Shown: positions 1 through 20,337, numbered from the stretch's first letter. The stretch: DNA of 64,000 bases from Candidatus Sericytochromatia bacterium (GCA_040400605.1 JBBAPZ010000002.1:33476-97475); one strand, 5' to 3'. The notes: a model not told the origin generated them from the sequence alone. Program-made: numbers and translations.

Positions 1-179
1 ATGATGTAAAGGGAAACGACCACGGTGATCAACGACATTGTCAGATTTGCGATGATCAAAATGTCGAGCAGCCAGGTGGGAACCGGCAAAATGAGAATAC
101 CGAGCACTGCGACCACCACCGCGGCCAGCGCCAGGTCGAAAGACAACTTGCTCGTCTGCGCAGTGCCGGCCATCGCCAC
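1..179 (-). CDS. flhA: Flagellar export gate protein FlhA, N-terminal part only (runs off the window)
   Basis: Not in the ORF track. Manual translation (GTG 179 or ATG 173): MAGTAQTSKLSFDLALAAVVVAVLGILILPVPTWLLDILIIANLTMSLITVVVSLYI, matching the FlhA/SctV TM1-2 pattern ILPxPxxLLDxLxxxN. GAGGT SD upstream. Confidence 0.85.
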   Translation of the reverse strand, partial: MAMAGTAQTSKLSFDLALAAVVVAVLGILILPVPTWLLDILIIANLTMSLITVVVSLYI

Positions 180-265
180 GGGTTCGGTTACCTCACGCCC
201 TTATCTGATTGGTGATCACCCACGCCCATCATAACGATTGAAGCACCGGATGGGCAAGACTTGGC

Positions 266-2110
266 TCAAACCGGCACACCCAAGCGCCGACGCAGTTGTT
301 GGGCAACGGAACGTTGCTGGAAAGCAGGCAACGTCGGCTGACCCTGAATCCTTTGCATCAAGTCATCCTGCATTTCAGGTGGAAGAACCGATAAGACCAT
401 ATCCGCGTAACCAGGATTCAAAGTACCGAGCACCGCTGCAGCCGTGGCGGGGCGCTCTTGCATCAACAGCTCCGCGACCGTATTGGGGTCAATCTGTTCC
501 AAAAAGCCGAATGCTGAATCGCCACCGCTGGCCTCTGGCACCTGCTGGGTCATCTCGGCTGGTGCAAAGCCCGCCAACGCATTCGGGTCAAAGGCGGGGG
601 GCATGCCGGGATCACCCAACGAATCCACCAATACGTCGGTCGTATCCTCCCTGCGAGACGCCATGCGAACCAACGCGAGCAAGAGGAATAGCACCACGAA
701 ACCAACCGCCGCACCAATGATCCAGCTGGTAGGTATACCGCCATCTTTTTTCTTGGCATTGCTGGCGGCTGCGGTTTTGCTCTGTTCCTGCTGCTCGAGC
801 AACTGTTTCAGCATGTCGGTTTGTGACGTATCAAAGGCGACGGGCTGTACCACGATTTGATCACCCCGGCCGCCGACATCCGCCCCAGCCGTGGCAGCAA
901 CAATCTGGACCAATGCCGGGACCCGTTCAAGGCTTAAACCTTGAATCAACGCCGTCACCGACATGCGCTTGACGGTCCCGATTTCTTCTTCGGTCAAGGT
1001 ATCGTTCATACTCCAGTTGCTGTGTTGGGTATTCTCATAAGTCTTTTCAAACCCGCCGCTTCCGCTGCCCTGGTTCGGCAGCGATTCGAGCGGGTAACCG
1101 GGCAATCGTGGCAGATTGCCGGTCACACCCGTAATGTTGCCTTGGGTCGCGCCCCCATTATTGGATTTCTCCGTGCTTTTGGTGGAATTTGCCGGATAGA
1201 CGCGACCTGTACCGTCAGCTGGGGGGGCAAACAGCCGGGTTTTAGTTTTCTTTTGGGTAAAGTCAAGGTCGACCGCGACGCGAACGACCGATTTTCCTGG
1301 ACCATACATTTTATCCAGCAAAGACTGCACCTTGACCTCGATGGCGGATTCCCGTTCGTGTGTGAGCATCATCTGGCGATCCAACGCTTTGGCCAACAGG
1401 CGATCCGTCACATCACCCGCATTTTCGGTCATGCCGTCGGACAGCAACTTTCCTTGGTCATTCACCACGGTGACATTGTTGGTCTTAAGTCCGGGAACGG
1501 AACTGGCCACCAGATGTTGAATGCCCTCCACCTGCGCCTTGCCCAGTGACTTGTTTGGACTTTGTCGCACCATGACCGACGCGGTGGTCGGTTTGCGTTC
1601 CTCGGTGAACAACTGGTCCTCGGGCATGTTGATTAAAACGGAGGCACTATCCACCCCGTCAATCTTGCGCACGAGTCGGGCCAATTCACCGTTCAGTGCC
1701 CGGTTAAACGCGACCTTTTTTTCAAAGTCGGTTGAAATGAAACTGTTGGGTTTGTCACCGAACAACTGCGAAAATCCGATATCACCAGCTTTCGGCAATC
1801 CCTTCAACGCCAATTTGATGCGCGCTTCATCCGCCTTGGCACTGGGTACGGAGACCGCTGTTCCATCATTGACGATGTGAACGTCAATTCCTCTTTCCTT
1901 TAATTCTGCTGCCGCCTCTCCAGCCGTTTGAGGCTCCATGTTGCGAAAAATGACCGTGTAGCCCGGCTCAGCTGACCCTTCAACACCAGACTTGATCGTA
2001 TTTTGATTGCCCCGCGGGATAAAATTGGCGCCTACTGCCACCACGAGCAACATCAAGAGCAGTACGACGACAGCTTTGCCCTGTGCGGATAGCTCCTGGA
2101 AGAAATTCAC
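266..2110 (-). CDS. fliF: Flagellar MS-ring protein FliF with a C-terminal FliG middle-domain-like extension
   Basis: N-terminal TM; GLPKAGDIGFSQLF, RALNGELAR, PTTASVMV and LVASSVPGL motifs; second TM; tail FGFLEQIDP...QERPATAAAVL resembles the FliG-M EHPQ region. Confidence 0.9.
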   Translation of the reverse strand: MNFFQELSAQGKAVVVLLLMLLVVAVGANFIPRGNQNTIKSGVEGSAEPGYTVIFRNMEPQTAGEAAAELKERGIDVHIVNDGTAVSVPSAKADEARIKLALKGLPKAGDIGFSQLFGDKPNSFISTDFEKKVAFNRALNGELARLVRKIDGVDSASVLINMPEDQLFTEERKPTTASVMVRQSPNKSLGKAQVEGIQHLVASSVPGLKTNNVTVVNDQGKLLSDGMTENAGDVTDRLLAKALDRQMMLTHERESAIEVKVQSLLDKMYGPGKSVVRVAVDLDFTQKKTKTRLFAPPADGTGRVYPANSTKSTEKSNNGGATQGNITGVTGNLPRLPGYPLESLPNQGSGSGGFEKTYENTQHSNWSMNDTLTEEEIGTVKRMSVTALIQGLSLERVPALVQIVAATAGADVGGRGDQIVVQPVAFDTSQTDMLKQLLEQQEQSKTAAASNAKKKDGGIPTSWIIGAAVGFVVLFLLLALVRMASRREDTTDVLVDSLGDPGMPPAFDPNALAGFAPAEMTQQVPEASGGDSAFGFLEQIDPNTVAELLMQERPATAAAVLGTLNPGYADMVLSVLPPEMQDDLMQRIQGQPTLPAFQQRSVAQQLRRRLGVPV

Positions 2111-2147
2111 CTGCTTACCCCGCCTGCGTGCTCACGTTACCGATGCA

Positions 2148-2489
2148 TCAAATCTGGGTCTGCAACAACTGATTGATTGACGTCGCGGCTTTGGATACAA
2201 CCGTCGATGTCACTTGCACCAGCACATCGGATTTGGCCACGGCGAGCATCATCGTGTGAACATCGACGGGCTTGCCGGCGGCGAAGTCCAGCGTGATTCG
2301 CTCTGCCGTCACTTTGCTCTCATTCACTTCCGTGAGGGCGTGTTGCAACGTTTCACCAAAGGAGCGCTCCCGGATGTCTTGCACGCCATCCAGTTCGGGG
2401 GCCCGCACGGAATGATCAAACTCGACTGAAAAAGCATCGAAAGGATCGATGCCGCCGACTCGTGACAAACCTTGAATTGATCCCACCAT
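2148..2489 (-). CDS. fliE: Flagellar hook-basal body protein FliE
   Basis: SFGETLQHALTEVN...GKPVDVHTMMLAVAKS...QTQI; sits between flgC and fliF; start moved to ATG 2489 after GAGGAG. Confidence 0.85.
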   Translation of the reverse strand: MVGSIQGLSRVGGIDPFDAFSVEFDHSVRAPELDGVQDIRERSFGETLQHALTEVNESKVTAERITLDFAAGKPVDVHTMMLAVAKSDVLVQVTSTVVSKAATSINQLLQTQI

Positions 2490-2525
2490 TGTGAGTCTCC
2501 TCGTCATTCCCCGATGGAAAAATGC

Positions 2526-2936
2526 TTACTTCCCAATTTCCATGGCCTTGTTCATCATGTTCTTGGCTGCGTTAGACACAGTAATATTGGCCTCAAAGGT
2601 GCGCGACGCTGCGATCATGTCAACCATTTCGTTGACAACGTTGACATTCGGCATTCGCAAAAAGCCACGCGCATCTGCATCAGGATGACCTGGATTGTAC
2701 ACCAAAGGAAAGGGACTTGGGTCTTTTTGAATACCAACCGCCTCCACGCCGCGACTGTCGGCGCCGAGTTCATTCGCCAACATCTCCGCAAAGACCGGCA
2801 CTTCCCGTCGATACGGTCCACCTTCCGCCGAACGGGTGCTGTTCGCGTTGGCGAGGTTGTTGGCGATACGCTCCAACCAAAAGCGGTTGGCGGTCATTCC
2901 ACTGGCGGCAATATCCATGACGTCACTGAGTGCCAC
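2526..2936 (-). CDS. flgC: Flagellar basal-body rod protein FlgC
   Basis: ANNLANANSTR, GGPYRR, YNPGHPDAD, MPNVNVVNEMVDMI. Confidence 0.95.
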   Translation of the reverse strand: MALSDVMDIAASGMTANRFWLERIANNLANANSTRSAEGGPYRREVPVFAEMLANELGADSRGVEAVGIQKDPSPFPLVYNPGHPDADARGFLRMPNVNVVNEMVDMIAASRTFEANITVSNAAKNMMNKAMEIGK

Positions 2937-2953
2937 TCGGTATCCCCTTATGC

Positions 2954-3367
2954 TTACTTCGCCTGCGCGATGGTTCGCAGGAGTTGGAAATCTTTGGAAA
3001 TGACGGCGGCAAGCGCATTGTATTTTCCGGCGTTCATTGCGAGTGCGCTCATTTCCAGTTCAACCGGCACCCGGTTGCCATCAATCCGCTGTGCCCCGTC
3101 ATTGGCACGCCCCAGTACCGGTTGCCACTTGAGCAAGGCATCGGCGTGTGATTTTGACGACATATCCGCATCGACATTGGCATTGGCATCAAACAATGCT
3201 TCTTGCTGGGTCAAGGCTTCGAGCAGGGATGCCTCGAAATTGACTTCTTGCCGCGCATAACCAGGGGTATTGATATTCGCGATGTTATTGGCGATCGCAT
3301 GAAGGCGCAAGCCCAAACCGTCCAGCGAGCGCTCAACGGCATGCATCATCGGCGAACTGATTTCCAT
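2954..3367 (-). CDS. flgB: Flagellar basal-body rod protein FlgB
   Basis: IANNIANINTPGY and RIDGNRVPVELEM; precedes flgC. Confidence 0.92.
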   Translation of the reverse strand: MEISSPMMHAVERSLDGLGLRLHAIANNIANINTPGYARQEVNFEASLLEALTQQEALFDANANVDADMSSKSHADALLKWQPVLGRANDGAQRIDGNRVPVELEMSALAMNAGKYNALAAVISKDFQLLRTIAQAK

Positions 3368-3376
3368 TGCCCCCCC

Positions 3377-4090
3377 CTACCACGAAATAAAGTCGTCAAT
3401 TGACTTTTTCTTGCCAAGTTTATGACGCAATTGCTCCAACGCCCGGCGATGGATCCGACTGACCCAAGACTCCGAAAGCCCCAACTTTTGACCAATCTCC
3501 GCAAATGACATGTGGTGAAAATAATAATAGCGCAAAGTCGTCCGTTCTTGAATCGGTAACTGTTCCACCGCCAGTCGCAAGATTTGTTGCAGTTCTTCCA
3601 GCTCCAGTTCGTGCTGTACCGTGTCAGACTTGCCGAGCTGTTTCAATAAATTGAAGTCTTCCCCGTCATCGCCACTTCCGGCCGGGGCATCCAGTGACAA
3701 AACGTACGAGTAAGTGATTTGTGTCACTTTGCTACTCAATGCGACGGCGTCACTGCTCGCTTCATGTTCCGCGTCGACCTCATCGGGCTGCTTGACCGTT
3801 TTGTTGGTCACGGTCGGCACTTTGGGCAAATTATCCAGAATGGCCCCTTTGATGTAATATGTGGCAAAGGTTTCGAACTTGACCCCCCGAGCGGGATCAA
3901 ATCGTTCTGCGGCGGCCATCAAGCCCATCACGCCATCTGACACCAAATCCTCAAGGTCATAGTGTCGCGGCAATCGCGTCGACAATCGTCGCGCGATTGA
4001 TCGGACCATTGGCATATACTTTTCGACCATGTCGGTTGACCGTGTCGATGTAACGGAATCCCCCGCCTCTGCAGCCTTTCTGGTCGTCAC
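3377..4090 (-). CDS. FliA/WhiG-family RNA polymerase sigma factor, atypical (region 3 apparently deleted)
   Basis: Region 2 DLEDLVSDGVMGLMAAAERFDPARGVKFETFA; LSLDAP; region 4 SFAEIGQKLGLSESWVSRIH. Confidence 0.85.
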   Translation of the reverse strand: MTTRKAAEAGDSVTSTRSTDMVEKYMPMVRSIARRLSTRLPRHYDLEDLVSDGVMGLMAAAERFDPARGVKFETFATYYIKGAILDNLPKVPTVTNKTVKQPDEVDAEHEASSDAVALSSKVTQITYSYVLSLDAPAGSGDDGEDFNLLKQLGKSDTVQHELELEELQQILRLAVEQLPIQERTTLRYYYFHHMSFAEIGQKLGLSESWVSRIHRRALEQLRHKLGKKKSIDDFISW

Positions 4091-4437
4091 TGGGCGCCTC
4101 CTTCCGGCGCCGTCACGCCAAGCCGAGCATCGAGCTGCGCATAGAGCGCATCTGATAGCGCATTGTTGCCACCCGAAGCCATCGCGCGCCCGGCTGACTG
4201 ATCGAACAGGTACATAAATGATTCGAGATCCGCGCCCCCGAACAGCCCGCCCTCCTCATCCGTCAACGTGGTCTGTCGCATCGACTCGAATAACTGCGAG
4301 TAGAGCAACGAAGAAAACTCGTCGCACTGTTGCCTCAACGCCTGCGCTTGTTCTTTACGGTCAGGCTTTTGGGGTCCCTCGGCGCGCAAGGGCATCCAGT
4401 TTGTCATTGAGGGAATGGAATACATCGAATCCGCCAT
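4087..4437 (-). CDS. flgJ: FlgJ-like rod-binding protein (no muramidase domain)
   Basis: LRQQCDEFSSLLYSQLFESMRQT...GLFGG...LSDALYAQL; follows flgI. Confidence 0.75.
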   Translation of the reverse strand: MADSMYSIPSMTNWMPLRAEGPQKPDRKEQAQALRQQCDEFSSLLYSQLFESMRQTTLTDEEGGLFGGADLESFMYLFDQSAGRAMASGGNNALSDALYAQLDARLGVTAPEGGAQ

Positions 4438-4451
4438 AGGTCACTTATACC

Positions 4452-5606
4452 CTAGATCAGCTCAAGTTGCGCATTCAACGCACCTGCAGCTTTAATGTTC
4501 TGGATGATGGAAATCATTTCGCGCGGTTTGACGCCCAGGGTGTTCAGCGCCTTGACCAGTTGTCCGAGGGTGGCACCGGATTGCAGCACCAGCGTTTTGG
4601 CGGGTTCTTCCATAACCGAAATGTTTGAGTTTCGAACGACGGTTGTCGTGCCCGTCGAGAAAGGCGCCGGCTGCGAGACGCTCGTTTTGGTCTCCACTTT
4701 GATGACCAGCGCACCGTGCGAGATCGCGACCGGATCGATGCGCGTGTTGGCGCCCATCACCACCGTGCCGCTGCGTTCCTCGATCACGACCTTGGCCACG
4801 TGATCCGGACGCACGGTTAACTGTTCGATGCGGGCGATGAGTTCGGGGACGCGATCGCGATAGGAGGACGTCACGTAACACTTTATCGTCCCTGCATCGA
4901 GCGGCGACGCCAATGCCAGACCACTCGCATTGATGGCTGCCGCACTGCGCGCACTGGTTGCAAAATCTGGATTCAACAGATTCAAGAAAAGATGTCCAGT
5001 CGCATCAACCACCGTGACGGGTACCTCACGCTCAACAATGCCACCATTGGGCACGCGTCCGACCAACACATTGTTTTTGGTCGTCGCGGACCCCGATGCC
5101 GTCGACTGAAATCCGCCTGTACTCACAGCACCCTGTGCCACCACGTAGGTGTGCCCATCAGCCGCACGCAGGGGTGACTGCAACAAGACACCATTGGTGA
5201 TGGCCCGCGCATCGCCGATGCTGGCCAAGGTGACATCCACTTGCTGGCCGGGCTTGACGAAAGGCGGCAGATTGCATGTGACCATCACCAAGGCTGTGTT
5301 GCGCGACAGAATCTGCCCTTGAAGTTCGGAAGGGGGGATGTTGTTGAGGCGTTGGATCACGTTTTCCAACGCACGATTAGTGACACGCATCTGCTGACTG
5401 TCACCCGTACCCGGCAAACCAACAACGAGCCCAAGACCCGTCACCTGGTTGGAGCGCGCCCCCTGAACCGTGGCCACATCCTTCAATCGGACCAATTCAT
5501 TGGTCGATGCCAACTGTGCCTGCGCGTGATTTGACTGCACAGCAAGCCAGCCAATCACAGCCAACCCAACCTTGAATTGCCAACTCTTCATTTCAAGGCC
5601 TTTCAC
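4452..5606 (-). CDS. flgI: Flagellar P-ring protein FlgI
   Basis: RLKDVATVQGARSNQVTGLGLVVGLPGTGD, AKVVIEERSGTVVMG, KAAGALNAQLELI; start may be ATG 5591. Confidence 0.95.
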   Translation of the reverse strand: MKGLEMKSWQFKVGLAVIGWLAVQSNHAQAQLASTNELVRLKDVATVQGARSNQVTGLGLVVGLPGTGDSQQMRVTNRALENVIQRLNNIPPSELQGQILSRNTALVMVTCNLPPFVKPGQQVDVTLASIGDARAITNGVLLQSPLRAADGHTYVVAQGAVSTGGFQSTASGSATTKNNVLVGRVPNGGIVEREVPVTVVDATGHLFLNLLNPDFATSARSAAAINASGLALASPLDAGTIKCYVTSSYRDRVPELIARIEQLTVRPDHVAKVVIEERSGTVVMGANTRIDPVAISHGALVIKVETKTSVSQPAPFSTGTTTVVRNSNISVMEEPAKTLVLQSGATLGQLVKALNTLGVKPREMISIIQNIKAAGALNAQLELI

Positions 5607-5609
5607 GTG

Positions 5610-6197
5610 CTACCACAGCCAGTTGAACAGCCGCGTCAACAAACCCGGCGTCGCTTTGGCCGTCGCTGGGCCCGAGCCTTTAACGTCCACGGTCATATCG
5701 GCCACCCGGCTACTCTCAATGCGGTTGTCTGGTGAGATATCCAGGGGTCGCACGATGCCGCGGATGGTGATGTCGGTGTCCTCGTCATTGACCCGGATGT
5801 GCTTCGTGCCGACAACCCGCAACGTGCCATTGGGCAGCAATTCTTCAATGCGTGCGGTGACATCCATCTGAATGCGGCCATTGCGACTGGTCGTCCCTCG
5901 GCCCTGAAAGTCGTCCCGTCCACGCACCTCGATTTGATTTCGGACCACCTGTGGAATCAAGGCGCCAAAATCCCAATCGCTGCGTATGCGTGCGTCTTTG
6001 CTGCGATCCGTCGACGCACCGGATTCTGCGAGGTTACGCTCTGTAACAACAATCGTGATGAGATTGCCAACGCCGAGGTAAGGGCGTGTGAAGCTGGTCA
6101 GGTTTTCATTTGGACCACCTTCCACATATAACGAATCTGCACTGGCCGCCCCAGACAAGTTCACGATGATTGCAATTACAAACGCCATCCATTTCAT
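5610..6197 (-). CDS. flgH: Flagellar L-ring protein FlgH
   Basis: VGNLITIVVTE, LPNGTLRVVGTK, GIVRPLDISPDNRIESSRVAD. Confidence 0.92.
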   Translation of the reverse strand: MKWMAFVIAIIVNLSGAASADSLYVEGGPNENLTSFTRPYLGVGNLITIVVTERNLAESGASTDRSKDARIRSDWDFGALIPQVVRNQIEVRGRDDFQGRGTTSRNGRIQMDVTARIEELLPNGTLRVVGTKHIRVNDEDTDITIRGIVRPLDISPDNRIESSRVADMTVDVKGSGPATAKATPGLLTRLFNWLW

Positions 6198-6943
6198 TGG
6201 CTACCCTCCAAATCCAGACTCACGCGATTCGGTGCTACCACGCGCGCCATGAATTCCACCTTTGACTCGGGATTCGACACTTTGATCAACTGCCCCATAA
6301 CCCCGTCCGTGCGCGCGATACCTTGCGCGATTACGGTCAAGTCTCCCGATGTGACCAAGACCGTGAGCGCATCGCCCGCTTTCACCATCCGCGCCAGGCG
6401 AAAAATCTTCGTTGTGAGTCGGGTGCCCATCGGGACCGCTTTTTGGAGTTCCAGCCCAACCAGTTGCTCAAGTTTGTAATTCCCCATGTCTGCCGTCTGC
6501 TTGATGACGTCTCGAACACTTCGGACATCCGCCTCAGTGAGCAAATGTCCGGCTTCCAGTCGCCGCGCGGCGATCAGCGCACTATGATACAGCGTCACGG
6601 ACAACTTGGGGAAAATCGTTCGATAGCGCTGTCCATCGACGAACACCTGAATCGCAACATGCCCCCGCCCGGCAAGGTTCACCCCTTTGGCCACTTCAAG
6701 CGTGACACGCCCTTCCGGTAACGTCGGCAACAAATTTGCAGCGCTAATATCCGCCCACTCGACTTCGACGTCCTGCCGCGGAAGCTGTAAACGCATCATT
6801 GCCGCGTCGCGAACGAGATCGATAATTTGACGTTCCGATACAGGAGCCGCGTTTGCGCACAACGCGCTCCCCCAAGCCAACCCGAATGCGACCAACGCCC
6901 AGATGCGGCTCACAAACACTCCCTCAATCGCTCCGCTCGTCAT
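6194..6943 (-). CDS. flgA: Flagellar P-ring chaperone FlgA
   Basis: Signal peptide, SAF domain, C-terminal GIARTDGVMGQLIKVSNPESK; true start may be GTG 6913 or 6919. Confidence 0.85.
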   Translation of the reverse strand: MTSGAIEGVFVSRIWALVAFGLAWGSALCANAAPVSERQIIDLVRDAAMMRLQLPRQDVEVEWADISAANLLPTLPEGRVTLEVAKGVNLAGRGHVAIQVFVDGQRYRTIFPKLSVTLYHSALIAARRLEAGHLLTEADVRSVRDVIKQTADMGNYKLEQLVGLELQKAVPMGTRLTTKIFRLARMVKAGDALTVLVTSGDLTVIAQGIARTDGVMGQLIKVSNPESKVEFMARVVAPNRVSLDLEGSQ

Positions 6944-6996
6944 GATACACGTTAAGGTGCCAAACGCGCGATCATTAACCCGTCAAATCACCGTTT

Positions 6997-7020
6997 ATTC
7001 CCGATTAGCCCTTGATTAAC
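6997..7020 (-). promoter_or_regulatory. Candidate SigB/SigF-type promoter for flgA (GTTAAT-N12-GGGAAT)
   Basis: Motif read on the minus strand across the flgG stop; same pattern occurs at several other gene starts. Confidence 0.45.
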
Positions 7021-7799
7021 TGGTTCGCCGACTCCATCATTTTATCAGACGACGAAATCGCTTTGGAGGCGGCATCGTAAGACTTTTGTGTTGTGATCAT
7101 CGTGACCATTTCCGTCACGATATCCACATTGGATGTCTCCAGCATGCCCTGCTTGATAAGCCCGCGTCCTTCCAACGCTGGTCGCCCGATGACAGGTTCA
7201 CCCGACGCGGGTGTCTGCTTGAGCAGGTTGTTGCCTGAGGCGGCCAGACCGGCTGGATTGGGGAAACGCGCGATGTTGATGACACCGACCTCTTCCTGTT
7301 CTGCCGACAACGGTCGACGCACCAGCACCAAACCATCCTCACGGATGTGGATATCCGTCGCATCGACCGGAATCTGAATCTGGGGAGACAGCAACAAACC
7401 CGTCGACGTCACGATGTTGCGCTGCGCATCCAATTTGAACGACCCATCCCGGGAGTAAGCCTGCGTCCCATCCCGTTCTTGCACAATGAAAAAATCATTG
7501 ACCAAACCGATGGCATTTTGAGAGTTGTCGATCGCCAAATGCAACGGGTTATTGGTTACCTGCAAGGAGCCATGCGAGTACATCCTGGTCGTCGCCACCG
7601 GGCGCACGCCCCGGCCGACTTGAGACCCCGCGTTCTCAAGACCGGGTTGATTCAACGTCTGGTAAACCAGGTCCTGAAAATCAACCATGCTCTTTTTGAA
7701 TCCCGTGGTGTTCACGTTGGCCAAATTGTTGGCGATGGTATCGATGCGCATTTGTTGCGCCTGCATGCCCGTCGCTGCCGTCCAAATTCCGTGAATCAT
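7005..7799 (-). CDS. flgG: Flagellar distal rod protein FlgG
   Basis: MIHGIWTAATGMQAQQ, ANNLANVNTTGFKK, FQDLVYQ, LETSNVDIVTEMV; start set at ATG 7799. Confidence 0.93.
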   Translation of the reverse strand: MIHGIWTAATGMQAQQMRIDTIANNLANVNTTGFKKSMVDFQDLVYQTLNQPGLENAGSQVGRGVRPVATTRMYSHGSLQVTNNPLHLAIDNSQNAIGLVNDFFIVQERDGTQAYSRDGSFKLDAQRNIVTSTGLLLSPQIQIPVDATDIHIREDGLVLVRRPLSAEQEEVGVINIARFPNPAGLAASGNNLLKQTPASGEPVIGRPALEGRGLIKQGMLETSNVDIVTEMVTMITTQKSYDAASKAISSSDKMMESANQLIKG

Positions 7800-7865
7800 T
7801 CTTTTGCTCCTCAAGCGCCCACGCGACCTGATTATGTCCCAGTCACACGCCCAAGACTGTGACAC

Positions 7866-8600
7866 TTATTGCACGCGACCCAATTCGTTGGCCACTTTGT
7901 TGAGTAAATTGTCCTGGGTGGTGATGGCTTTTTGACCAAACGAGAACGCCCGATTACCCGTCATCAGCGCAACCATCTCGGTCACCACGTTCACGTTGGA
8001 GCCTTCGAGATAACCTTGCTTCACCTGAAATGCATCCGTTGTGACAGGCGCGAAACGCGCGCTCACCGGAAAATTGCCCGCACCCGGATTTGGTGCATCA
8101 ACCACTTTCAATCGCCCCACTTGAGCGTTCCCCGAAAAAATTGTCCCGTCTTCCCGGATGCGAAACTCACCACCGGTCAGCGTGTTGATACGCAAAGGGT
8201 TGCTGTCCACCCCAAGTATCCGTTCACCTGTTTGTGTCGCCAAAAATCCGGCCGCGTCCAAAATGAAGTCGCCATTGCGTGTGGCCTGCACCCGACCATC
8301 CGCAGCCAGTGTCTGAAAATAACCGTTTCCGGAAATGGCCACGTTCAAGGGGTTTTGCGTGCGTATCAATGCCCCTTGGCTCTCGTGTCGGGCCGTGCCG
8401 ACAACCCGCGTGCCCAGCCCCACCCGGTCACCGGCTTGGAGATGCTCGAAACGGGTTACATAGTCGCCAAAACTTTCACCAACCAACATCGTGCGCTTGT
8501 AGCCAGGCGTACTGATGTTGGCCAAGTTTGCAGCCCCTTCCACGACAGCGGTGGCCTGGAAATTCATGCCTGATGCCGCGATGTACATTCCCTTTAACAT
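7866..8600 (-). CDS. flgF: Flagellar rod protein FlgF (FlgF/FlgG family)
   Basis: ANLANISTPGYK, TRNGDF, QGYLEGSNVNVVTEMV; directly upstream of flgG. Confidence 0.85.
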   Translation of the reverse strand: MLKGMYIAASGMNFQATAVVEGAANLANISTPGYKRTMLVGESFGDYVTRFEHLQAGDRVGLGTRVVGTARHESQGALIRTQNPLNVAISGNGYFQTLAADGRVQATRNGDFILDAAGFLATQTGERILGVDSNPLRINTLTGGEFRIREDGTIFSGNAQVGRLKVVDAPNPGAGNFPVSARFAPVTTDAFQVKQGYLEGSNVNVVTEMVALMTGNRAFSFGQKAITTQDNLLNKVANELGRVQ

Positions 8601-8606
8601 GCCGGT

Positions 8607-8918
8607 TCAACTCCCCTTGTTTTTCTTCATCAAACGCCCCAGTCCCGTCGGCAACGGCTCATCCAGTCCGAGTATGAAATCCAGCACCTGCTCGCAGGCA
8701 GGAACAAGGACGGGGGGCACACTGCCTTCCGTATTTGGCGCGGACACATCCAGTTTTTTGCCACCCGCCGATGGCGATCGCTTGGGAATCAGAAAACTGA
8801 TTTCCCCGGGCGGCGCATTCGGATCCAGGCGCACGGCAAACGGGTCATCCTCACGCGCCGTCCCTGCATCACCTTGCCGTCGCTTGCCACTCGAACCGGT
8901 CCGGTCTTGTTCGCTCAC
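8607..8918 (-). CDS. Small protein resembling a degenerate stand-alone FlhB C-terminal domain (YlqH/FlhX-like)
   Basis: GTG 8918 with GAGG SD. FAVRLDP resembles AVALRYD and VPPVLVPACEQVLDFILGLD resembles IPxELYxAVAEVLAFVYxLD. Follows the fliK-like gene. Confidence 0.55.
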   Translation of the reverse strand: MSEQDRTGSSGKRRQGDAGTAREDDPFAVRLDPNAPPGEISFLIPKRSPSAGGKKLDVSAPNTEGSVPPVLVPACEQVLDFILGLDEPLPTGLGRLMKKNKGS

Positions 8919-8928
8919 ATCACGTTCC

Positions 8929-10038
8929 TCACAAAATGCCCTCCGCACGACTGAGGCGACGCACGTCCCGCCGCCTCGGCAGCAAGGCACTGATGGTTCG
9001 CGCCGGCCCCACCGTTCGTACGCTGATGCTATCCACCTCATACGGTACAGCTGCCAAACTCTGACGCAACAGCGCCAATCGGGCTTCTACGCGCTTTTTG
9101 ACGGTATCCTCCGGGACCTCGATCAACACAGTCAAACGCCCACGGATAAACGTCAATTCCACGGTGATTCGTCCCAGATGCCGCGTATCGATCGCCAGTG
9201 TCACCCGTACGAACGCAGTGGCGACGCCGCGTTGTCCCCCACCTTCCTGCTGCACGAGGACTTCCCCGGGAAGCGGTTGCGCATCGCGCCAGATGAAAAA
9301 CGGAAAGATTTGCACCGGGTTGCCCGCATTGGCCAACAGTTTCTGCCCCTCGAACAACTGCTTCAAACGCTGCAACTCCAGTGCGGTCTCAGAACCCAAC
9401 CCGCGCGCCTCCAAACGGGACAATTCCTCGGCCATGCCAGAAAGCAAACCCTGAAACTGCGGCAATTGTTGAACCGGTCTTTGCTCCAATTTGCCCAATT
9501 GCCAAAATGCCGTGAGTTTTCGGCCCAACCCGAGCATTTTTGTATTCGGTTCAGCCTTTAACGCCATGGTCAAACGCGCAAGCAAATGGGTGAAAGGACC
9601 ACCTGACAGCAACTGCAGCAATGCGTCAATTGCCCCCGGATTCATCCTGATTCCCTGGCTGTAGGCCAATACGATCGCTTCCAGATAATTGGGATCGGGG
9701 AAACCCAATTCGCTCCATTGTTTCGCGATTTGAGCAATGGCATCACCATCAATCCCTTGCCCGTAACGCAGCAATTCCTTGGCGATGCGCAAGTGCTCCA
9801 AAGTCGGCGAAACACCCATTGCACCCAGTCGCGCCAACAAGCTGGCATCGTTATGAAATCCGAAATAACGCTTCGCCGGTACATTGGCCGCAGCATTTTG
9901 CGCACTGCCCCCCGGGACGCCCGCTGCAGCCCCTGCCTCCCGACTGCCCTCGGTATTGAGCCCACCACGACCCGCCACGCTGCGGCGTTGTTGTGGCAAC
10001 TGCCCCGGAACCTGTGGTGTACCAGGAATCTCAGGCAT
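8929..10038 (-). CDS. FliK-like hook-length/substrate-switch protein (C-terminal T3S4-like domain)
   Basis: Low-complexity N-terminus; C-terminal RVTLAIDTRHLGRITVELTFIRGRLTVLIEV...LALLRQSL fits FliK-C. Confidence 0.65.
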   Translation of the reverse strand: MPEIPGTPQVPGQLPQQRRSVAGRGGLNTEGSREAGAAAGVPGGSAQNAAANVPAKRYFGFHNDASLLARLGAMGVSPTLEHLRIAKELLRYGQGIDGDAIAQIAKQWSELGFPDPNYLEAIVLAYSQGIRMNPGAIDALLQLLSGGPFTHLLARLTMALKAEPNTKMLGLGRKLTAFWQLGKLEQRPVQQLPQFQGLLSGMAEELSRLEARGLGSETALELQRLKQLFEGQKLLANAGNPVQIFPFFIWRDAQPLPGEVLVQQEGGGQRGVATAFVRVTLAIDTRHLGRITVELTFIRGRLTVLIEVPEDTVKKRVEARLALLRQSLAAVPYEVDSISVRTVGPARTISALLPRRRDVRRLSRAEGIL

Positions 10039-14572: not shown

Positions 14573-14764
14573 ATGAATCTGGTTTACAAGTTGATTCAGG
14601 AAGAAGACGGTCAGGCGCTGGTGGAGTACGGCTTGATTCTGGGTTTGGTCTCGGTTGGCTTGACCATTACGTTGACGGCGATGAAGGGTGAGATCGGCAA
14701 GACTTTTGAATACGTCGTGAAGCAGTTGAAGAGCGCGCAATCAGCCACCGCGGCCAAGAAGTAA
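14573..14764 (+). CDS. flp: Flp pilin
   Basis: EEDGQALVEYGLILGLVSV; AAGGAG SD. Confidence 0.92.
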   Translation: MNLVYKLIQEEDGQALVEYGLILGLVSVGLTITLTAMKGEIGKTFEYVVKQLKSAQSATAAKK

Positions 14765-14778
14765 GCGTACGGTGCGCG

Positions 14779-14955
14779 ATGTTGCATGACTTGCTCACCA
14801 ATGAAGACGGGCAGGCTCTGGTCGAGTATGGCCTGATCCTGGGCTTGGTCTCGGTGGCGCTGGTGACGTCACTGACAGGCATCAAGGCTGGTTTGCTGAA
14901 TGTGTTCAATGATGTCGTGGGCAAGTTGGGCAAGGCGACCACAGCCAAGACTTGA
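14779..14955 (+). CDS. flp: Flp pilin, second tandem copy, 58 aa
   Basis: Not in the ORF track: MLHDLLTNEDGQALVEYGLILGLVSVALVTSLTGIKAGLLNVFNDVVGKLGKATTAKT. Confidence 0.9.
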   Translation: MLHDLLTNEDGQALVEYGLILGLVSVALVTSLTGIKAGLLNVFNDVVGKLGKATTAKT

Positions 14956-15013
14956 GCGTGTTGGCTGACCGGGGATACGGCGCCTGACCGCGCCATAGTT
15001 TTGGTTTCCTTCC

Positions 15014-15059
15014 GTATCCGAAGATGGTGCAACCAAGCGGTTGACTCATCTTCGGATAC
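15014..15059 (+). other. Long stem-loop downstream of the pilin pair
   Basis: GTATCCGAAGATG-gtg-CAACC-aagc-GGTTG-act-CATCTTCGGATAC (13 + 5 bp perfect stems). Confidence 0.7.
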
Positions 15060-15412
15060 TTCATGCTGATCCGGTGACAGTCAGCTTGATTTAATGAATA
15101 CTGTTGGGACGATAGACTGTTTTGTACAGATTCTGACTGACAAAGAGCCGTCCGATCACTTCCAATGTGAACCTGCGCCGGTCGCTGGTCACGTCACAAG
15201 CTTCCAGTTGATCCCTGATTAATAGGAATCTGTCTAGCACTTCCATGGGCTCAGGGATTGCGACGTGGGCTGTCATGGCAAGCATTCCGGCTCACGCGGT
15301 TTCTGGCGCTTGATCGTTCGTGCTGCAATCACGCGGTGTAAAACGTAGGCGCCCGGGGTTCCTTGGGTACAATGGTCAACATCACGCGCCCCTTGTGCTT
15401 TTGGTTGAAGGG

Positions 15413-15970
15413 ATGTCACGGATGGTAGCCATCTGGCAAATGGGTCTGACAGGCATTGTGTTGGTTGCGATGGCGACGGACTTGAAGCGTCGCAAGATTT
15501 ATAACTGGCTGACCTTTCCGGCCATGCTTGTGGGGCTGATCCTGCAAGGCGTGTTTGGTGGCACATCGGGTGTGCAGTCGGGCTTGGTGGGGCTTTTGGT
15601 TGGCAGCGTGATTTTTCTGATCGGATTTGTGGTCGGGGCGATGGGCGCTGGTGACGTGAAGCTGATGGCTGCGGTGGGTGCGTGGCTCGGCTGGCCCCAT
15701 GCGGTGGCGGCTGTGTTGTATGTGAGTTGTTTTGGTGGGCTCATTGCGATTGTGGCTGCGGTGATGCATGGCAGCCTGTGGCGCATGTTGGCGAATGTGT
15801 ATTGGTTTATGGTGGGGTTGGTGTTGCCGGGTGGCAAGGCGCAAGCGGCATTTGCCCAGAGTGCGGCGCCGCCTGTGCCTTATGGGGTGTCGATCGCCCT
15901 GGGCACGATACTGGCCTTGTTTTATCCTGAGCCCATTCATTTGCTCGCGGCACTTGGAGTCGGGTCGTGA
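15413..15970 (+). CDS. cpaA: Flp prepilin peptidase CpaA/TadV (A24 family)
   Basis: TDLKRRKIYNWLT, MGAGDVKLMAAVG, PVPYGVSI; start set at ATG 15413 (15422 also possible). Confidence 0.92.
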   Translation: MSRMVAIWQMGLTGIVLVAMATDLKRRKIYNWLTFPAMLVGLILQGVFGGTSGVQSGLVGLLVGSVIFLIGFVVGAMGAGDVKLMAAVGAWLGWPHAVAAVLYVSCFGGLIAIVAAVMHGSLWRMLANVYWFMVGLVLPGGKAQAAFAQSAAPPVPYGVSIALGTILALFYPEPIHLLAALGVGS

Positions 15971-17064
15971 TGCCTCAGGTGATTGAATCGGCGGCTCAGG
16001 AGTCTGGTCAGGCCTTGGTTGAGTTTGCGCTCATTTTGCCTATGTTGGCGCTTTTGACCTTCGGCACGCTCGAAGTGTCATTGTATTTGCAGCACGCGTC
16101 GGCTTTGAATGGCGCGGCTTTTTTGGCGGCGCGTTCCGCCAGTGTGGTGGGTAACCAGAATCGGATCAGCACCCAAAATGTGAAGACTTATGCGGATGCA
16201 ACCGGCATGGCGTGGCTTGGCGAAAGTTGCCAGAACATGAAATCAGCTCACGGTGCCGATTACACGCGCTTTCGGCTTGAAGCGAAAATGGGGCTGTTGG
16301 CCAGTCTGTTGCAGGCGAGTGGGGGCGGTTCGGCGCGGGTTGATACGATAGGCGCCGTTGCTACGCTGCCGCTGGAATATGACCCAAAGCGTCAGCCCAA
16401 GCACACGGCCAATCCAACCTACAAACCGAAAACGCATTGCATGGTGAGTTACGATGCGCCGCGTGTCGCTGCGCCCAAAGGGGTGGGCGACGGTCTAAAG
16501 AAGCTTGCTGAGGTCAAGAAGGTGGTGGTTGACATCAAGGCCAAATGGCCCAAAGCGCCTGCGCCGCCGCCACCGGCTGCGATGACGCTCATCGCGAATC
16601 TGCCAACAGGCCCTGATACCGAGCCTTTCGGTGCGCGGCTGTCCGTTGCCCCGCGGCCTGTAAATGAAAGCAATGGCGAGCGTTATTTGCGTCCTGATTA
16701 CGAAAAGGCGACGGGTGGCGGTGTGGCGTGGCGGGTTGGCGATCTCAAACAGGCGCTTGAAGCTTATGCCACGGACCTCAGCAAGGCCAGTGGCATCAAA
16801 GACGCCTTCACTGAACTGGGGCGTTTTCCACAAGGCAGTTTGCCACAACCAGCACCGCCGACCGGGGGCACTGGAACACCCAAAGCGCCCGGTGGTCCCG
16901 GTAAGGTGGTGCCCCCTGTGCCACCAACAATTCCGACTGCGGCGTTGGCTGCGTTGCTCAAACCGGTGAAGCAGCTTTCCGCGCCGGCAGCGGAAGCACT
17001 GCAGCGCGGCAGCAACACGCAGTATGCGCGCTTGGTGACCCAGGAGCGGAGGCTCTTTCGATGA
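15967..17064 (+). CDS. TadE-like minor pilin with a long Pro/Gly-rich extension
   Basis: ESGQALVEFALILP...AAFLAAR. Confidence 0.8.
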   Translation: MMPQVIESAAQESGQALVEFALILPMLALLTFGTLEVSLYLQHASALNGAAFLAARSASVVGNQNRISTQNVKTYADATGMAWLGESCQNMKSAHGADYTRFRLEAKMGLLASLLQASGGGSARVDTIGAVATLPLEYDPKRQPKHTANPTYKPKTHCMVSYDAPRVAAPKGVGDGLKKLAEVKKVVVDIKAKWPKAPAPPPPAAMTLIANLPTGPDTEPFGARLSVAPRPVNESNGERYLRPDYEKATGGGVAWRVGDLKQALEAYATDLSKASGIKDAFTELGRFPQGSLPQPAPPTGGTGTPKAPGGPGKVVPPVPPTIPTAALAALLKPVKQLSAPAAEALQRGSNTQYARLVTQERRLFR

Positions 17065-17894
17065 GGGCCGTGATGCGTTGCGCTCAGGCTTTGCGGCGGG
17101 AGGAGGACGGACAGGCCCTTTTGTGGGGGGCTGGCGTGGTGGTGCTGGTGGTGGTGCTGTTTTATGGTGCCGTCGATATCGGGTTGTTGGTGCTTGGCAA
17201 GATTCAGGCGCAGGCTGCCGCGGATGGGGCGGCTTTGTCTGCCGCGGCGTTGAAGGCGAGTGTTCATAATACGCGATCGCTGGCGTATCGGGCGCAGTCG
17301 GGGCAAGTGATGTTGGCACGGCAGGCGTTGATCGAAGCGACGGGCCTGGCCGTGCGGGAGTTGAGTCAACCCGGTCACAAGCCGGCCCAGTTCAGGGAGT
17401 GTCTCGGTCGTGCGCGGGGGCATATCAAGAAGGTGACGCTGTTGCGGGAGGGTGTGCTCGAATTCAACCAGTGGGTCACGGACGCCAAGGTGGGGCCCGA
17501 CGCGGTGGAAAGGGCTGCATCAATTGGTTTGAAGGGCAATTTGGGTTTTTTGGCGGTGAGCGATCGTGGCAATCAGCGGTTGCTCACCCAAGGCGGGGCG
17601 CTTGTTGAAAATGCGCGAATCTCGTCTGCCGTTGGCGGGGTTGTTTATGGTGCCGAGGGATTGAATCGGAACGGGCATGCAGGCAAATCGCTGGTTCGCA
17701 TCAGCCCCCGGTTGAATGTCCTGGGTGCTGGTGTTTTCGGGATCGGCAGCAGTCAGGAACTGGAAGCGGAATCCGCTGCGGGGCCTTTGGAAGCACATAC
17801 GTTGTGGGGTGCTCTGCCAGCATTGGATGCGTACGGAATCAACTGGTATACGGTGCGTCTGTTGCCGATTGGTACAACGGGGCGGACGCTATGA
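17061..17894 (+). CDS. TadG-like pilus assembly protein
   Basis: EDGQAL + TM, AVDIG, AQAAADGAALSAA. Confidence 0.78.
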   Translation: MRAVMRCAQALRREEDGQALLWGAGVVVLVVVLFYGAVDIGLLVLGKIQAQAAADGAALSAAALKASVHNTRSLAYRAQSGQVMLARQALIEATGLAVRELSQPGHKPAQFRECLGRARGHIKKVTLLREGVLEFNQWVTDAKVGPDAVERAASIGLKGNLGFLAVSDRGNQRLLTQGGALVENARISSAVGGVVYGAEGLNRNGHAGKSLVRISPRLNVLGAGVFGIGSSQELEAESAAGPLEAHTLWGALPALDAYGINWYTVRLLPIGTTGRTL

Positions 17895-18499
17895 TGAATG
17901 GTTGTAACGACTGTTACGACGCGGAAAGTGGCCAGGCGATGGTCGAGTTTGCGTTGATGGTGCCTTTGCTGGTGGTTTTGTTGGTGGGCGTGGTGGGTGT
18001 GGGTGTGGCGCTCATCCAGGCGCAGCAGTTAAGCGTGGCGGCGCGTCACGTGGCACGCCAGACGGCGCTTGGGATGGTGGAGCAGTCCTTAAAAAAGGGC
18101 GGGGCCGCCTCCAGTGTGCAGGTGCTTGCCAGTCGCAGTTTGGCGCAAAGCGGGGCGCGGGAGTCAGGAGCCCGTATGGTGGGTGTGCGTTGGCAGTCGT
18201 TGGGAGGCGGTGGTGGTTTTCGTGCGATCGACGGCCATCGCGCGGCGCTTGTCATCAGCAAGCCTGGTGGCATCAGCGTTGGGCGCGGTGGGCGGCGCGG
18301 TGCGGGGATCGGGGTCTTGTACGTGGGTGTGGGTTTGGAAAGGGAGCAAGCGGGGGGCACGCGTCTGCTCAATATCGGTGCCAGCGCGGTGATGCCACTT
18401 GAATTGCCTTTGACGGGCACGCGGGAGATGCCGGGGGTGATGGATGCCAACCCGTGGATTCGCGCCATCGTCAACGATAAACTTGATACCCGTTTATGA
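17891..18499 (+). CDS. TadE-like minor pilin
   Basis: ESGQAMVEFALMVP...AARHVAR; ATG 17891 overlaps the upstream stop. Confidence 0.8.
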   Translation: MMNGCNDCYDAESGQAMVEFALMVPLLVVLLVGVVGVGVALIQAQQLSVAARHVARQTALGMVEQSLKKGGAASSVQVLASRSLAQSGARESGARMVGVRWQSLGGGGGFRAIDGHRAALVISKPGGISVGRGGRRGAGIGVLYVGVGLEREQAGGTRLLNIGASAVMPLELPLTGTREMPGVMDANPWIRAIVNDKLDTRL

Positions 18500-18894
18500 T
18501 GTCAGGCCGAACGGTGATGCTAATGGGGCTGATTTGGGGGCAGTGGATCGCAACGGTTGAGGCGCGTGAAATCTTGACCCATTTTCCAGCCTATCCCGGG
18601 TCTGAGCGCCCGCTGCCTGGTTGGGAGGATTCTCGGTTGGCGATCGCCCGCACTTTAGACAAGCCGGAGGCTGTGATCACCTATTATAGAAACAGGTTAA
18701 CCCAACAGGGTTGGCGTGTGGATCGATTCGAATGGCAGGAATCCTTGCAGGCCGCGCGCTCCCACCAACCGGCATGGCTGGTTTTTGAGCGTCCGGGTGA
18801 GGGACGTCTGGATTTGCAAGTGGTGCCTTATCGAGATGAAAAAACCCGTCAATATTCCTGTTGGATTTATTATCAATCCCGACGTTTGCTGTGA
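18496..18894 (+). CDS. Hypothetical exported protein in the tad locus
   Basis: Signal-like N-terminus, FPAYPGS and VITYYRNRLTQQGW; coupled to the upstream gene. Confidence 0.6.
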   Translation: MMSGRTVMLMGLIWGQWIATVEAREILTHFPAYPGSERPLPGWEDSRLAIARTLDKPEAVITYYRNRLTQQGWRVDRFEWQESLQAARSHQPAWLVFERPGEGRLDLQVVPYRDEKTRQYSCWIYYQSRRLL

Positions 18895-18924
18895 ATGCGA
18901 CCAAACAGTTTAAGGAGTCTATCG

Positions 18925-19998
18925 GTGAATTTGCGAGACCGTTTACGCGAACGTTCAGAAGACAACGCAGACAATGAGACGGACAAGCCAGAACCCGTGC
19001 GGGAAGCCAGGCGTGATTCCGCCAGACGTCCGGGATTGGATGTTAATCGTCGATTCCTGGTTTTGGCGGGCGTGACGGCGTTTATCACGGCCCTGATGGC
19101 TGCGTGGTACCTGCAGAAGCAGGGAGCAGGCCTCCAGGAGGGGGGCACAAAAATTGAGGTGATTGTACTGGCTGAAGAAGTGAAGGCGGGGCAGGCGTTG
19201 AACACCGATCGCCTGGGTACTGCGCTGATTCCCAAGGCCTATTTACCGGAAGGCTATCTCACCGAGATGGCCAAGGTGGAAGGGAAGGTTGCGATCGCTC
19301 CGATGGTGAGGGGCGAACCTGTGATCGAAAAACGGATCAGCGCCCCCAATCCCGCACTTGGCATCGCTTATCTGCTCAAATCGGGTGAACGCGCCAAAAC
19401 CATCACGGTGGACGCTGCCTCCGGTGTTGCTGGTTTGCTACGACCCGGAAACGATGTCGATCTGCTTGCAACGATTCCTGACCCCAATCAGGATGGACGC
19501 CGCATCAGTACGCCCGTTGCTCAAAAAGCGCGGGTCATCGCGGTTGGCAAACACCTCTATGGCGAAGTGCCCCGTCTCGACGAGAACGGTGAACCCATCA
19601 GTGATGACACCAGTGGGGGCATCTCGTCAGACAGCACGGTGACCCTGGCATTGCCGGCCAGCAAGATTGGCCTGATTTCACTGCTGGAAGACCTTGGCAA
19701 TCTCAAAATCGTTTTGCGTGGCGATGGGGAGACTGTTGTCAGTACCACACCATTTTCGGATGATGTCATCATGTCACTGGTCAGCGGTCAGATCCCCACG
19801 CGAGTGACCAAGGTAAGAGCCCCGGAAAAACCCGTTAACATCCGGCAAGCCCCCGTGCGCCAGACAGTTACCGCTCGGCCCAGTCGACGCACCGTGGCCG
19901 CACCGGCCAGACAGGCACCGGTTGTTGTGAAACAGGCACCCAAACGACCGGTCAGTCAGCCGGAAGTGATTCGTTTTGGCGGTGCAACGGATCAGTAA
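18925..19998 (+). CDS. cpaB: Flp pilus assembly protein CpaB/RcpC
   Basis: TM, SAF domain, SGVAGLLRPGNDVDL, RVIAVG; GTG 18925 after AAGGAG. Confidence 0.9.
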   Translation: MNLRDRLRERSEDNADNETDKPEPVREARRDSARRPGLDVNRRFLVLAGVTAFITALMAAWYLQKQGAGLQEGGTKIEVIVLAEEVKAGQALNTDRLGTALIPKAYLPEGYLTEMAKVEGKVAIAPMVRGEPVIEKRISAPNPALGIAYLLKSGERAKTITVDAASGVAGLLRPGNDVDLLATIPDPNQDGRRISTPVAQKARVIAVGKHLYGEVPRLDENGEPISDDTSGGISSDSTVTLALPASKIGLISLLEDLGNLKIVLRGDGETVVSTTPFSDDVIMSLVSGQIPTRVTKVRAPEKPVNIRQAPVRQTVTARPSRRTVAAPARQAPVVVKQAPKRPVSQPEVIRFGGATDQ

Positions 19999-20312
19999 CA
20001 TCAGGCATTCACGGGCTGTCATTCAAAAACAGCCCAAACCTGATCACCAGTCACCAGGCATTCGACAGTTTGCGGCGAGAAATCCTGGAAACCAAGTCAT
20101 CGTCTTACCCGTTAGACATATGCGATCGATCAAACGATCTGGTTCAGCTTGCAGGCGAGGCGTCCTGAATCAGGTATCCGAAGGGTGTTTCAAGCACTTT
20201 GTGCTTTTATGGGATGGCGAATGCGCGATTCCTCTTTTCTGGGTGATGCGTGTGAGTTTTTGGGATGTCGCCCGCCTGGCAGCGTTGGTGCTGCCATGAT
20301 TGGATACTGCCC

Positions 20313-20337
20313 GTAACAAGGGCCTCGTTTCGGGTAT
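20313..20337 (+). promoter_or_regulatory. Candidate internal SigB/SigF-type promoter for cpaC (GTAACA-N13-GGGTAT)
   Basis: About 40 nt upstream of the cpaC start; matches the recurring motif. Confidence 0.45.

Follow-up and report, generated by a model that had tools for sequence, protein, structure and literature searches.

We analyzed a 64,000-nucleotide stretch (G000:C2:33476-97475; hereafter, the window) of the genome G000 (3.7 Mb, 94.6% complete, 4.9% contaminated) of Candidatus Sericytochromatia, relatives of cyanobacteria without photosynthesis; the window begins with an operon of flagellar genes. The operon belongs to a second, paralogous set of flagellar genes, denoted system B, which, judging from the gene content of the genomes compared, is inherited in Sericytochromatia beside the ordinary flagellum (system A in G000). 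System B is probably a second flagellum-derived type III export machine, likely nonrotating and likely exporting through a rod and a hook-like tube; the combination of a rotor without a torque domain and retention of the system in relatives that lack flagellin points to such an appendage. A sequence-only reading of the window had proposed a flagellum-derived and probably nonrotating export machine. This core idea is supported, but the hook and the ATPase are not absent, the sigma factor is not degenerate, and the organism is flagellated.

The Window Operon Encodes an MS Ring Protein Fused to the Middle Domain of FliG

The operon consists of the following features (window coordinates; aa, amino acids; TM, transmembrane segment).

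1..179, minus strand: 5' end of flhA2, export gate; continues to G000:C2:31534, 706 aa; TIGR01398 746 bits versus 579 bits for the SctV model TIGR01399
266..2110, minus strand: fliF2, MS ring, 614 aa, 2 TM, with a C-terminal fusion to the FliG middle domain
266..520, minus strand: FliG-middle domain of fliF2, approximately aa 531-614, ERPAT for the EHPQT of FliG, no FliG-C after it
2148..2507, minus strand: fliE2
2526..2936, minus strand: flgC2, proximal rod
2954..3367, minus strand: flgB2, proximal rod
3377..4090, minus strand: FliA/WhiG-like sigma factor of system B, with regions 2 and 4 but not region 3, conserved throughout the class
4087..4437, minus strand: flgJ2, rod cap, rod-binding domain only
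4452..5606, minus strand: flgI, P ring, sole copy in the genome
5610..6197, minus strand: flgH, L ring, sole copy in the genome
6194..6943, minus strand: flgA, P-ring chaperone, sole copy in the genome
7005..7865, minus strand: flgG2, distal rod, start probably 7799
7866..8600, minus strand: flgF2, rod
8607..9041, minus strand: FlhX-like gene for a stand-alone FlhB C terminus, now a remnant, probable start 8918, no Pfam match
8929..10038, minus strand: fliK-like length-control protein, Flg_hook domain at aa 278-344

Read from position 10038 to position 1, the gene order is fliK-like, FlhB-C, flgF, flgG, flgA, flgH, flgI, flgJ, sigma, flgB, flgC, fliE, fliF, and flhA, as had been read from the sequence, and fliF is followed directly by flhA: the end of fliF2 (position 266) and the start of flhA2 (position 179) leave no room for a fliG-fliH-fliI block. 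The earlier observation that FliF carries the middle domain of FliG only also holds. Pfam FliG_M matches aa 542-592 (E = 1e-9) and PDB FliG matches at E = 2e-5, and no FliG_N or FliG_C match was obtained in FliF2. In the predicted model, the C-terminal domain is confidently helical and the remainder matches FliF rings; ERPAT stands at the place equivalent to EHPQT, which we take to be the FliM-binding motif of FliG. The sigma factor, previously considered degenerate, is instead 60-65% identical across the class, with Pfam regions 2 and 4 present and region 3 absent. The same judgment on the FlhB-C gene applies to this family (f1), where the gene is eroded and keeps the last helix alone, but not to the other order, where it is intact.

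System B Is Scattered Over the Genome and Coexists With a Complete Flagellum

Outside the window, the parts of system B are scattered, and the set as a whole is spread across four contigs.

C2:30491-33654, just outside the window: flhA2 and a flagellin-like gene (C2:30491-31453)
C2:21733-23132: fliJ2 and a second FliK-like gene
C15:18088-24947: fliR2, fliQ2, fliP2, a gene at the fliO position, fliN2, a membrane-SpoA protein (479 aa), a FliM-like gene, flgD2, and flgE2 (338 aa)
C9: fliH2-fliI2
C5: flhB2, with NPTH
C17: orphan hook-like flgX

The fliH, fliI, hook, and hook cap genes are indeed missing from the window, as had been noted, but dedicated system B paralogues are present on C9 and C15; as to the supposedly missing flagellin, a flagellin-like gene follows flhA2 just beyond the window. 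The complete inventory comprises FliP2/Q2/R2, FlhA2, FlhB2, FliH2/I2/J2, FliF2, FliM2, FliN2, the membrane-SpoA protein, FliE2, FlgB2/C2/F2/G2, FlgJ2, the L/P rings, the hook cap FlgD2, the short hook FlgE2, two FliK-like rulers, and a dedicated sigma factor. It contains homologues of all core injectisome export proteins (SctRSTUV, SctN, SctJ, and SctQ), together with the FliE, FlgB, and FlgC rod, the hook, and the hook cap. FlgK, FlgL, FliD, FliS, and FliL each have a single native copy in G000 and no system B paralogue, and the sole FliG_C of this genome is that of system A. The N-terminal LSQSEIDALL of FliM1, which we take to be the CheY-binding site, is absent from FliM2 in 4/4 sequences, so that FliM2 is predicted to be devoid of the CheY-binding N terminus.

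System A is distributed as follows; gene names on C5, C17, and C23 were assigned from sequence, gene order, and paralogue matches, with no family scan.

C15: fliF-fliG-fliH-fliI, flgBC, fliE, fliJ, fliK, flgD, flgE (507 aa), and motAB
C15: fliL, fliM, fliY, fliOPQR, flhB, flhA, and two flagellins
C5: flgF, flgG, flgJ, flgM, flgN, flgK, flgL, fliW, csrA, flhF, and flhG
C17 and C23: fliD and fliA, respectively

By gene content, system A is a complete ordinary flagellum, with full FliG, MotAB, hook, and flagellins, and it accounts for the fliG, motAB, hook, junction, and flagellin genes that had appeared to be missing; it has a cap gene as well. The sequence-only reading had named full-length fliG, motAB, hook genes, and flagellin elsewhere in the genome as evidence that would contradict it; taken literally, they are there, but they belong to system A, a different machine. 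The reported absence of che genes extends beyond the window in that no CheW was found anywhere in G000, despite the complete flagellum; CheW is also absent in 4/7 relatives of the same family. The flgA, flgH, and flgI genes occur once each in G000, in the window; with no separate L/P-ring genes, flagellum A must either share these or lack the rings. Of the two secretin-like genes in G000, one lies in a Tad locus and neither at a system B locus. Five of the nine Flagellin_N matches of G000 (the profile also matches FlgL) are on small contigs, C62, C104, and C117, possibly contaminants, and were not used; the tetranucleotide profile of C62 is clearly off, and those of C104 and C117 are borderline foreign.

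System B Is Conserved Across the Class and Persists Without Flagellin

Synteny in relatives, one of the checks suggested by the earlier reading, shows system B to be syntenic across the class. The FliF2 fusion is present in 39/40 relatives, the remaining copy being truncated at a contig end, and FlhA2, full or partial, in 39/40; the operon order is kept in 30 loci, some of them split or shortened by contig ends. Between the two orders, FlhA is 56% identical in system B versus 57% in system A, and FliI 69% versus 57%; thus, conservation in system B matches that in system A, and system B is not decaying. No stops were found in the system B FliF, FlhA, and FlgI matches listed among the relatives. 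Among 1.84 billion representatives, FlhA2 forms a 50%-identity cluster of its own, with the next full-length match being 44% identical.

FliG_C and flagellin are found in 37/40 relatives, whereas Flagellin_N was found in 0/6 and FliG_C in 0/3 genomes of family f7, where absences mean "not found" because these metagenome-assembled genomes (MAGs) are 74-98% complete. FliF, FlhA, and FliI are represented in f7 by the system B copies only (three genomes). The searches of f7 covered system B components other than FliH2 and FliK2. One f7 genome, G030 (three contigs, 93% complete), keeps FliE2, FlgB2/C2/F2/G2, FlgA/H/I/J, sigma, FlhB-C, FliM2, membrane-SpoA, FliN2, FliPQR2, FliJ2, FlhB2, FlgD2, and FlgE2. 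The L/P rings are present in 2/3 f7 genomes, which have no flagellum A.

Further FliG-related loci were observed in other families. In f3 and f4, a module (L182:6827-12237, L185:6992-12462, and L187:4896-10144) encodes a protein with a signal peptide, a weak FliF-C-like region, one TM, and FliG, followed by genes for a tetratricopeptide repeat (TPR) protein and a secreted protein and by a motA-motB pair belonging to the module. In f6, an orphan, divergent, full-length second FliG with N, M, and C domains is encoded away from the flagellar genes (L183:564-1772, L184:7811-8878, and L186:7353-8423).

System B Is a Separate Lineage in Phylogenetic Trees

All maximum likelihood trees were quick searches. 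In FastTree and quick IQ-TREE analyses, the FlhA2 sequences form one clade (support 100), which belongs neither to SctV (100) nor to canonical flagellar FlhA (99), the last clade including system A and the flagellar copy of Melainabacteria. The FlhA phylogeny proposed earlier as a check identifies a separate lineage but not an injectisome SctV. The split of FlhA2 from canonical flagellar FlhA received support of 94, 87, and 99 in three runs and only 0.51 in a 167-row FastTree. Constraining FlhA2 to group with the phylum's own flagellar FlhA was rejected by the approximately unbiased (AU) test under LG+G4 (p = 8.7e-5) and under the posterior mean site frequency (PMSF) model with the Melainabacteria copies included (p = 0.001). 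SctV is monophyletic at 100 without FlhA2; where canonical flagellar FlhA splits off, FlhA2 lies on the side of SctV (SH-aLRT, the Shimodaira-Hasegawa-like approximate likelihood ratio test, 99).

In the ATPase tree, which has 26 rows and long outgroup branches, the SctN clade is recovered at 100 without FliI2; FliI2 lies among Terrabacteria flagellar FliI, as sister (93) to two proteins, one of which shares a cluster with a protein of Ca. Xenobia. Taken together, the FlhA and ATPase trees indicate that system B is not an injectisome and did not arise by recent duplication of system A. The FlhA trees favor a position on the stem of the injectisomes and the ATPase tree does not; an independent origin from a Terrabacteria-type flagellum would fit both trees.

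Candidate Subunits and Substrates of System B

The hook-like proteins of system B, FlgE2 and the orphan FlgX paralogues, range from about 240 to 800 aa, share common terminal helices, and are separated from FlgE1/F/G at SH-aLRT 100. The flagellin-less genome G030 has six such genes. FlgE2 and FlgX make the best candidates for the structure outside the cell. The membrane-SpoA protein, which has some six helices and ends in a FliN/SpoA domain, is conserved in both orders; for its membrane part, solved folds gave no clear match (best Z 4.4), and the protein atlas returned no match to the protein. Derivation of this protein from MotA is unsupported (hmmsearch E = 0.2; hhalign probability 1%, with 1/30 shuffles scoring higher; no MotA among 50 fold matches).

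The candidate cargo genes suggested earlier, at window positions 63306, 57637, and 56588, have no Pfam match and no link to system B, and the latter two have no homologue in the genome or in the loci compared. The open reading frame (ORF) at 63306-63998 and onward (G000:C2:96781-100223) contains Gly/Ala-rich hydrophobic stretches, has one paralogue at C5:113910, and runs into an assembly gap, beyond which it probably continues into a large protein. Downstream of flgX on C17 (G000:C17:34445-44487), there is a run of orphan genes without obvious signal peptides, encoding helical proteins of 75-84 aa and Q/P-rich repeat proteins. Considered as cargo, these small helical and Q-rich genes were rejected: synteny stops at the next gene, and no homologues were found in the loci compared. 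A search for N-terminal export-signal motifs returned lipoboxes and only one flagellar-rod-like motif, and the list of low-complexity N termini was merely suggestive. A scan with a sigma-28-type promoter consensus gave 19 matches, including flaG and fliD, and no system B gene. Three proteins of G000 correspond to the cytoplasmic domain of FlhA and lack its membrane part (G000:C1:237933-239684, C7:52672-53745, and C1:143595-144905); similar partial FlhA matches occur in many relatives, and these proteins may be substrate-sorting adaptors.

One metatranscriptome (6% of words present) contains contigs of depth 3-6 that partly cover fliF-fliE, flgB, sigma, flgA, and flgG, whereas the flp pilin reaches a depth of 31; because DNA carry-over is possible, this coverage was not used as evidence.

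A Parallel Set in Gut Melainabacteria

Within a 401-genome sample of the phylum, FlhA is present in 170/170 genomes of one small-genome family, whose proteins the protein atlas assigns to Ca. Melainabacteria and which is probably Gastranaerophilales. FliP was found in all 37 such genomes tested, which we grouped by FliP copy number: 16 have two copies, along with flagellins and MotB, whereas among the 21 with one copy MotB was found in 0/21 and flagellin is absent in 20/21. Rod/hook-family genes are present in 4/4 one-FliP genomes tested and FlhB in the sole one tested. The one-copy genomes examined keep fliE-fliF-orf-fliH-flhA, flgF-flgG-flgB-flgC, fliJ-fliK-like-short flgE, flhB-sigma, and fliN-like-fliPQR. 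L/P-ring genes of Melainabacteria accompany the flagellar genes, and the set itself has no L/P rings in the loci examined. A separate gene occupies the fliG position; it has no significant Pfam match, aligns to FliF2 with an hhalign probability of 0.2%, and has FliG_C/FliG_M leads below 0.8 in the protein atlas. Near fliE, three Melainabacteria genomes have a conserved gene for a 109-aa coiled-coil protein (L252:6499-9373, L255, and L256), in one case with a weakly related longer neighbor; these proteins are possible axial substrates, and no Sericytochromatia homologue was found among the sequences compared.

A Model of System B and Alternative Explanations

By analogy with established flagellar assembly, system B could operate as follows. 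The FliG-middle domain fused to FliF2 would dock FliM2/FliN2 and the ATPase beneath the MS ring, resulting in an injectisome-like sorting platform without a torque ring, which the membrane-SpoA protein would anchor to the membrane. The export gate would build the rod and then cross the outer membrane through the L/P rings rather than a secretin; FlgE2 and the orphan FlgX would polymerize into a short tube or needle, and FliK2/FlhB2 would then switch export to late cargo.

Several observations weigh against a nonrotating exporter. A rod, hook, hook cap, and bushing rings would suit a shaft that rotates. System B is known here from genomes alone, and the relatives in which it stands by itself, those of f7, are incomplete MAGs. 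Neither cargo nor a chaperone or translocon was identified for system B, no profile search for SctF or translocators having been made. Extra FliG-C proteins are encoded in families f3, f4, and f6; they are unlinked to system B loci, and none was found in G000 or f7. A flagellin-like gene directly follows flhA2, in family f1 only, in 5/5 loci with enough flank. The Melainabacteria set is not clearly system B: over 11 proteins its best scores split about evenly between systems A and B, and a single clade of the two was disfavored (AU p = 0.029, LG+G4). Finally, a MotB beyond the flagellar one is present in 20/20 Sericytochromatia tested, with exactly one MotB in f7 (6/6), the extra MotA2B2 pair splits into the same two clades as system B, and MotB2 retains the MotB Asp. 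This co-occurrence, shared split, and conserved residue suggest that system B may have an ion motor.

System B could accordingly be a rewired motor, in which MotA2B2 drives it or supplies mechanical power through a noncanonical contact, such as the membrane-SpoA protein, and turns or moves a filament of FlgE2/FlgX rather than flagellin. The retention of the extra MotB in flagellin-less f7, the retention of rod, hook, and L/P rings, and an flbD-like gene before motA2 in f6 would all fit such a motor. Yet FliG-C is absent from f7 and, for system B, from G000, and the Melainabacteria set functions without MotB in 21/21 genomes. The Glu of the RREGLLALE motif of MotA1 is missing in 20/20 MotA2 rows, and in G000 the Arg is missing as well; these are presumably torque residues. 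In 20 extra-MotB loci, moreover, motA2B2 adjoins no system B gene, except that in one locus an orphan flgX lies some 5 kb away or less; in two f7 genomes it lies next to flp pilin genes. We consider a rewired motor possible but doubtful. The pair itself (G000:C3:86254-88014; L196:10044-12107) has a long charged C-terminal tail in f5-f7.

A second ordinary flagellum, of the lateral or Flag-2-like kind, for which system A supplies FliG, stators, junction, cap, and flagellin, would explain the prevalence of FliG_C and flagellin among the relatives, the flagellin-like genes after flhA2 in f1, and the better score of FlhA2 on the FlhA than on the SctV model. It is hardly probable, because f7 retains system B without FliG-C or flagellin and because the C terminus of FliF2, the place where FliG would bind, is itself a FliG-middle domain. 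System B might also be an envelope-spanning or periplasmic structure, or a checkpoint that exports a sigma regulator, with no external cargo and with L/P rings that also serve flagellum A; the dedicated, conserved sigma factor within the operon and the single-copy state of flgA, flgH, and flgI in G000, extending to FlgI in every genome that has it (39/41), are in line with this possibility. However, the expanded, variable hook-like family and the hook cap argue for an external, diversifying appendage, and the rings persist in two of three f7 genomes devoid of flagellum A, making this explanation improbable. Least credible is a decaying remnant of a lost flagellum. The erosion of FlhB-C in f1 is compatible with decay, and the accessible parts of PMC3787301 and PMC4040986 treat the partial sets of gut Melainabacteria as loss; nevertheless, the absence of stops, conservation equal to or above that of system A, coexistence with complete flagella, and separation in the trees speak against it, and intact conservation across the class largely refutes it.

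The nonrotating export machine remains our preferred explanation, and we consider system B a probable third class beside the flagellum and the injectisome. A far more tentative extension, to which we would not commit, is that of a third ancient class of type III secretion systems, torque-less, with exit through the L/P rings and a needle of diversified hook proteins, in nonphotosynthetic Cyanobacteriota including gut Melainabacteria and perhaps in Eremiobacterota and Margulisbacteria; with FlhA2 on the SctV side, it may preserve the rod-and-hook intermediate, long looked for, of a flagellum-to-injectisome transition. Injectisomes are held to have arisen once from flagella, with the rod, hook, and L ring lost and a secretin gained. 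If our interpretation is correct, system B represents an independent flagellum-to-secretion transition at an intermediate stage, at which the torque domain and the need for flagellin had been lost and the rod, hook, and rings kept, so that the order of losses becomes testable. The "partial flagella" of most gut Melainabacteria appear to be a distinct machine that every tested genome has, which prompts one to ask what is exported in the guts of humans and animals, and flagellar marker trees of the phylum may have mixed two paralogues.

Other Loci in the Window

Three further loci were annotated, the pilin of the first being the deepest RNA contig in the metatranscriptome.

14573-25433: Tad/Flp pilus locus, with pilin, peptidase, three TadE/G-like proteins, RcpC, secretin, an ATPase that carries a fused ParA-like domain, and TadB/C
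26556-28025: gene of the FapA (flagellar assembly protein A) family, lying in neither flagellar cluster
34805-50265: Pel-like exopolysaccharide locus, with GH114, PelF-like glycosyltransferase, PelG, and TPR proteins, and with a CotH kinase and an HlyD protein

Comparison With Known Systems

Searches of full-text literature, which leaves out most subscription papers, turned up no account in Sericytochromatia of a pair of paralogous systems or of the fusion between FliF and FliG-middle. System B shares with the bacterial flagellum of the Bacillota/Terrabacteria type, exemplified by system A, the export gate, ATPase complex, MS ring, FliM/N C-ring, FliE/FlgBCFG rod, FlgJ, L/P rings, FlgD/FlgE, and FliK/FlhB switch. 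It differs in the absence of the FliG N and C domains, a FliM without the CheY site, the lack of its own FlgK, FlgL, and FliD, a flagellin that is dispensable (f7), the added membrane-SpoA protein, the expanded FlgX family, and a separate FlhA lineage. With the injectisome, it has in common a flagellum-derived type III core without a filament and probably without torque; in contrast, FlhA2 and FliI2 fall outside the SctV and SctN clades, FliE, FlgB, FlgC, FlgH, and FlgI are kept, and no secretin is linked.

Reduced flagella are reportedly reused for export in the hook-basal bodies of Buchnera. The same is described for an FT3SS-like system of Lysobacter enzymogenes in the accessible part of PMC7688988. 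Both resemble system B in having flagellar export parts without a filament or swimming but, as far as these accounts extend, are lineage-specific reductions of the only flagellum, whereas system B is a class-wide, separate paralogue with new subunits beside a working flagellum. The secretin-less system of Myxococcales, according to the available portion of Abby and Rocha (2012; PMC3459982), lacks FlgBCDEK, FliEG, FlgH, and MotAB; system B, unlike it, keeps FliE, FlgB/C/D/E, and FlgH. Closest in content are the partial sets of Gastranaerophilales, in which, as in system B, the export gate, ATPase, and rod are kept without a filament. The accessible text of PMC3787301 lists two flhA for one genome and attributes the filament-less set to genome reduction, and that of a recent preprint (bioRxiv 10.64898/2026.04.24.720558) reports that about 75% of Gastranaerophilales keep flhB, fliI, flgG, and other genes, for which it states that a secretion role is postulated. 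In these accounts, so far as they are available, the partial sets are treated as retained pieces of one flagellum, whereas here they appear as a second paralogue beside a complete flagellum, with two FliP in 16/37 genomes.

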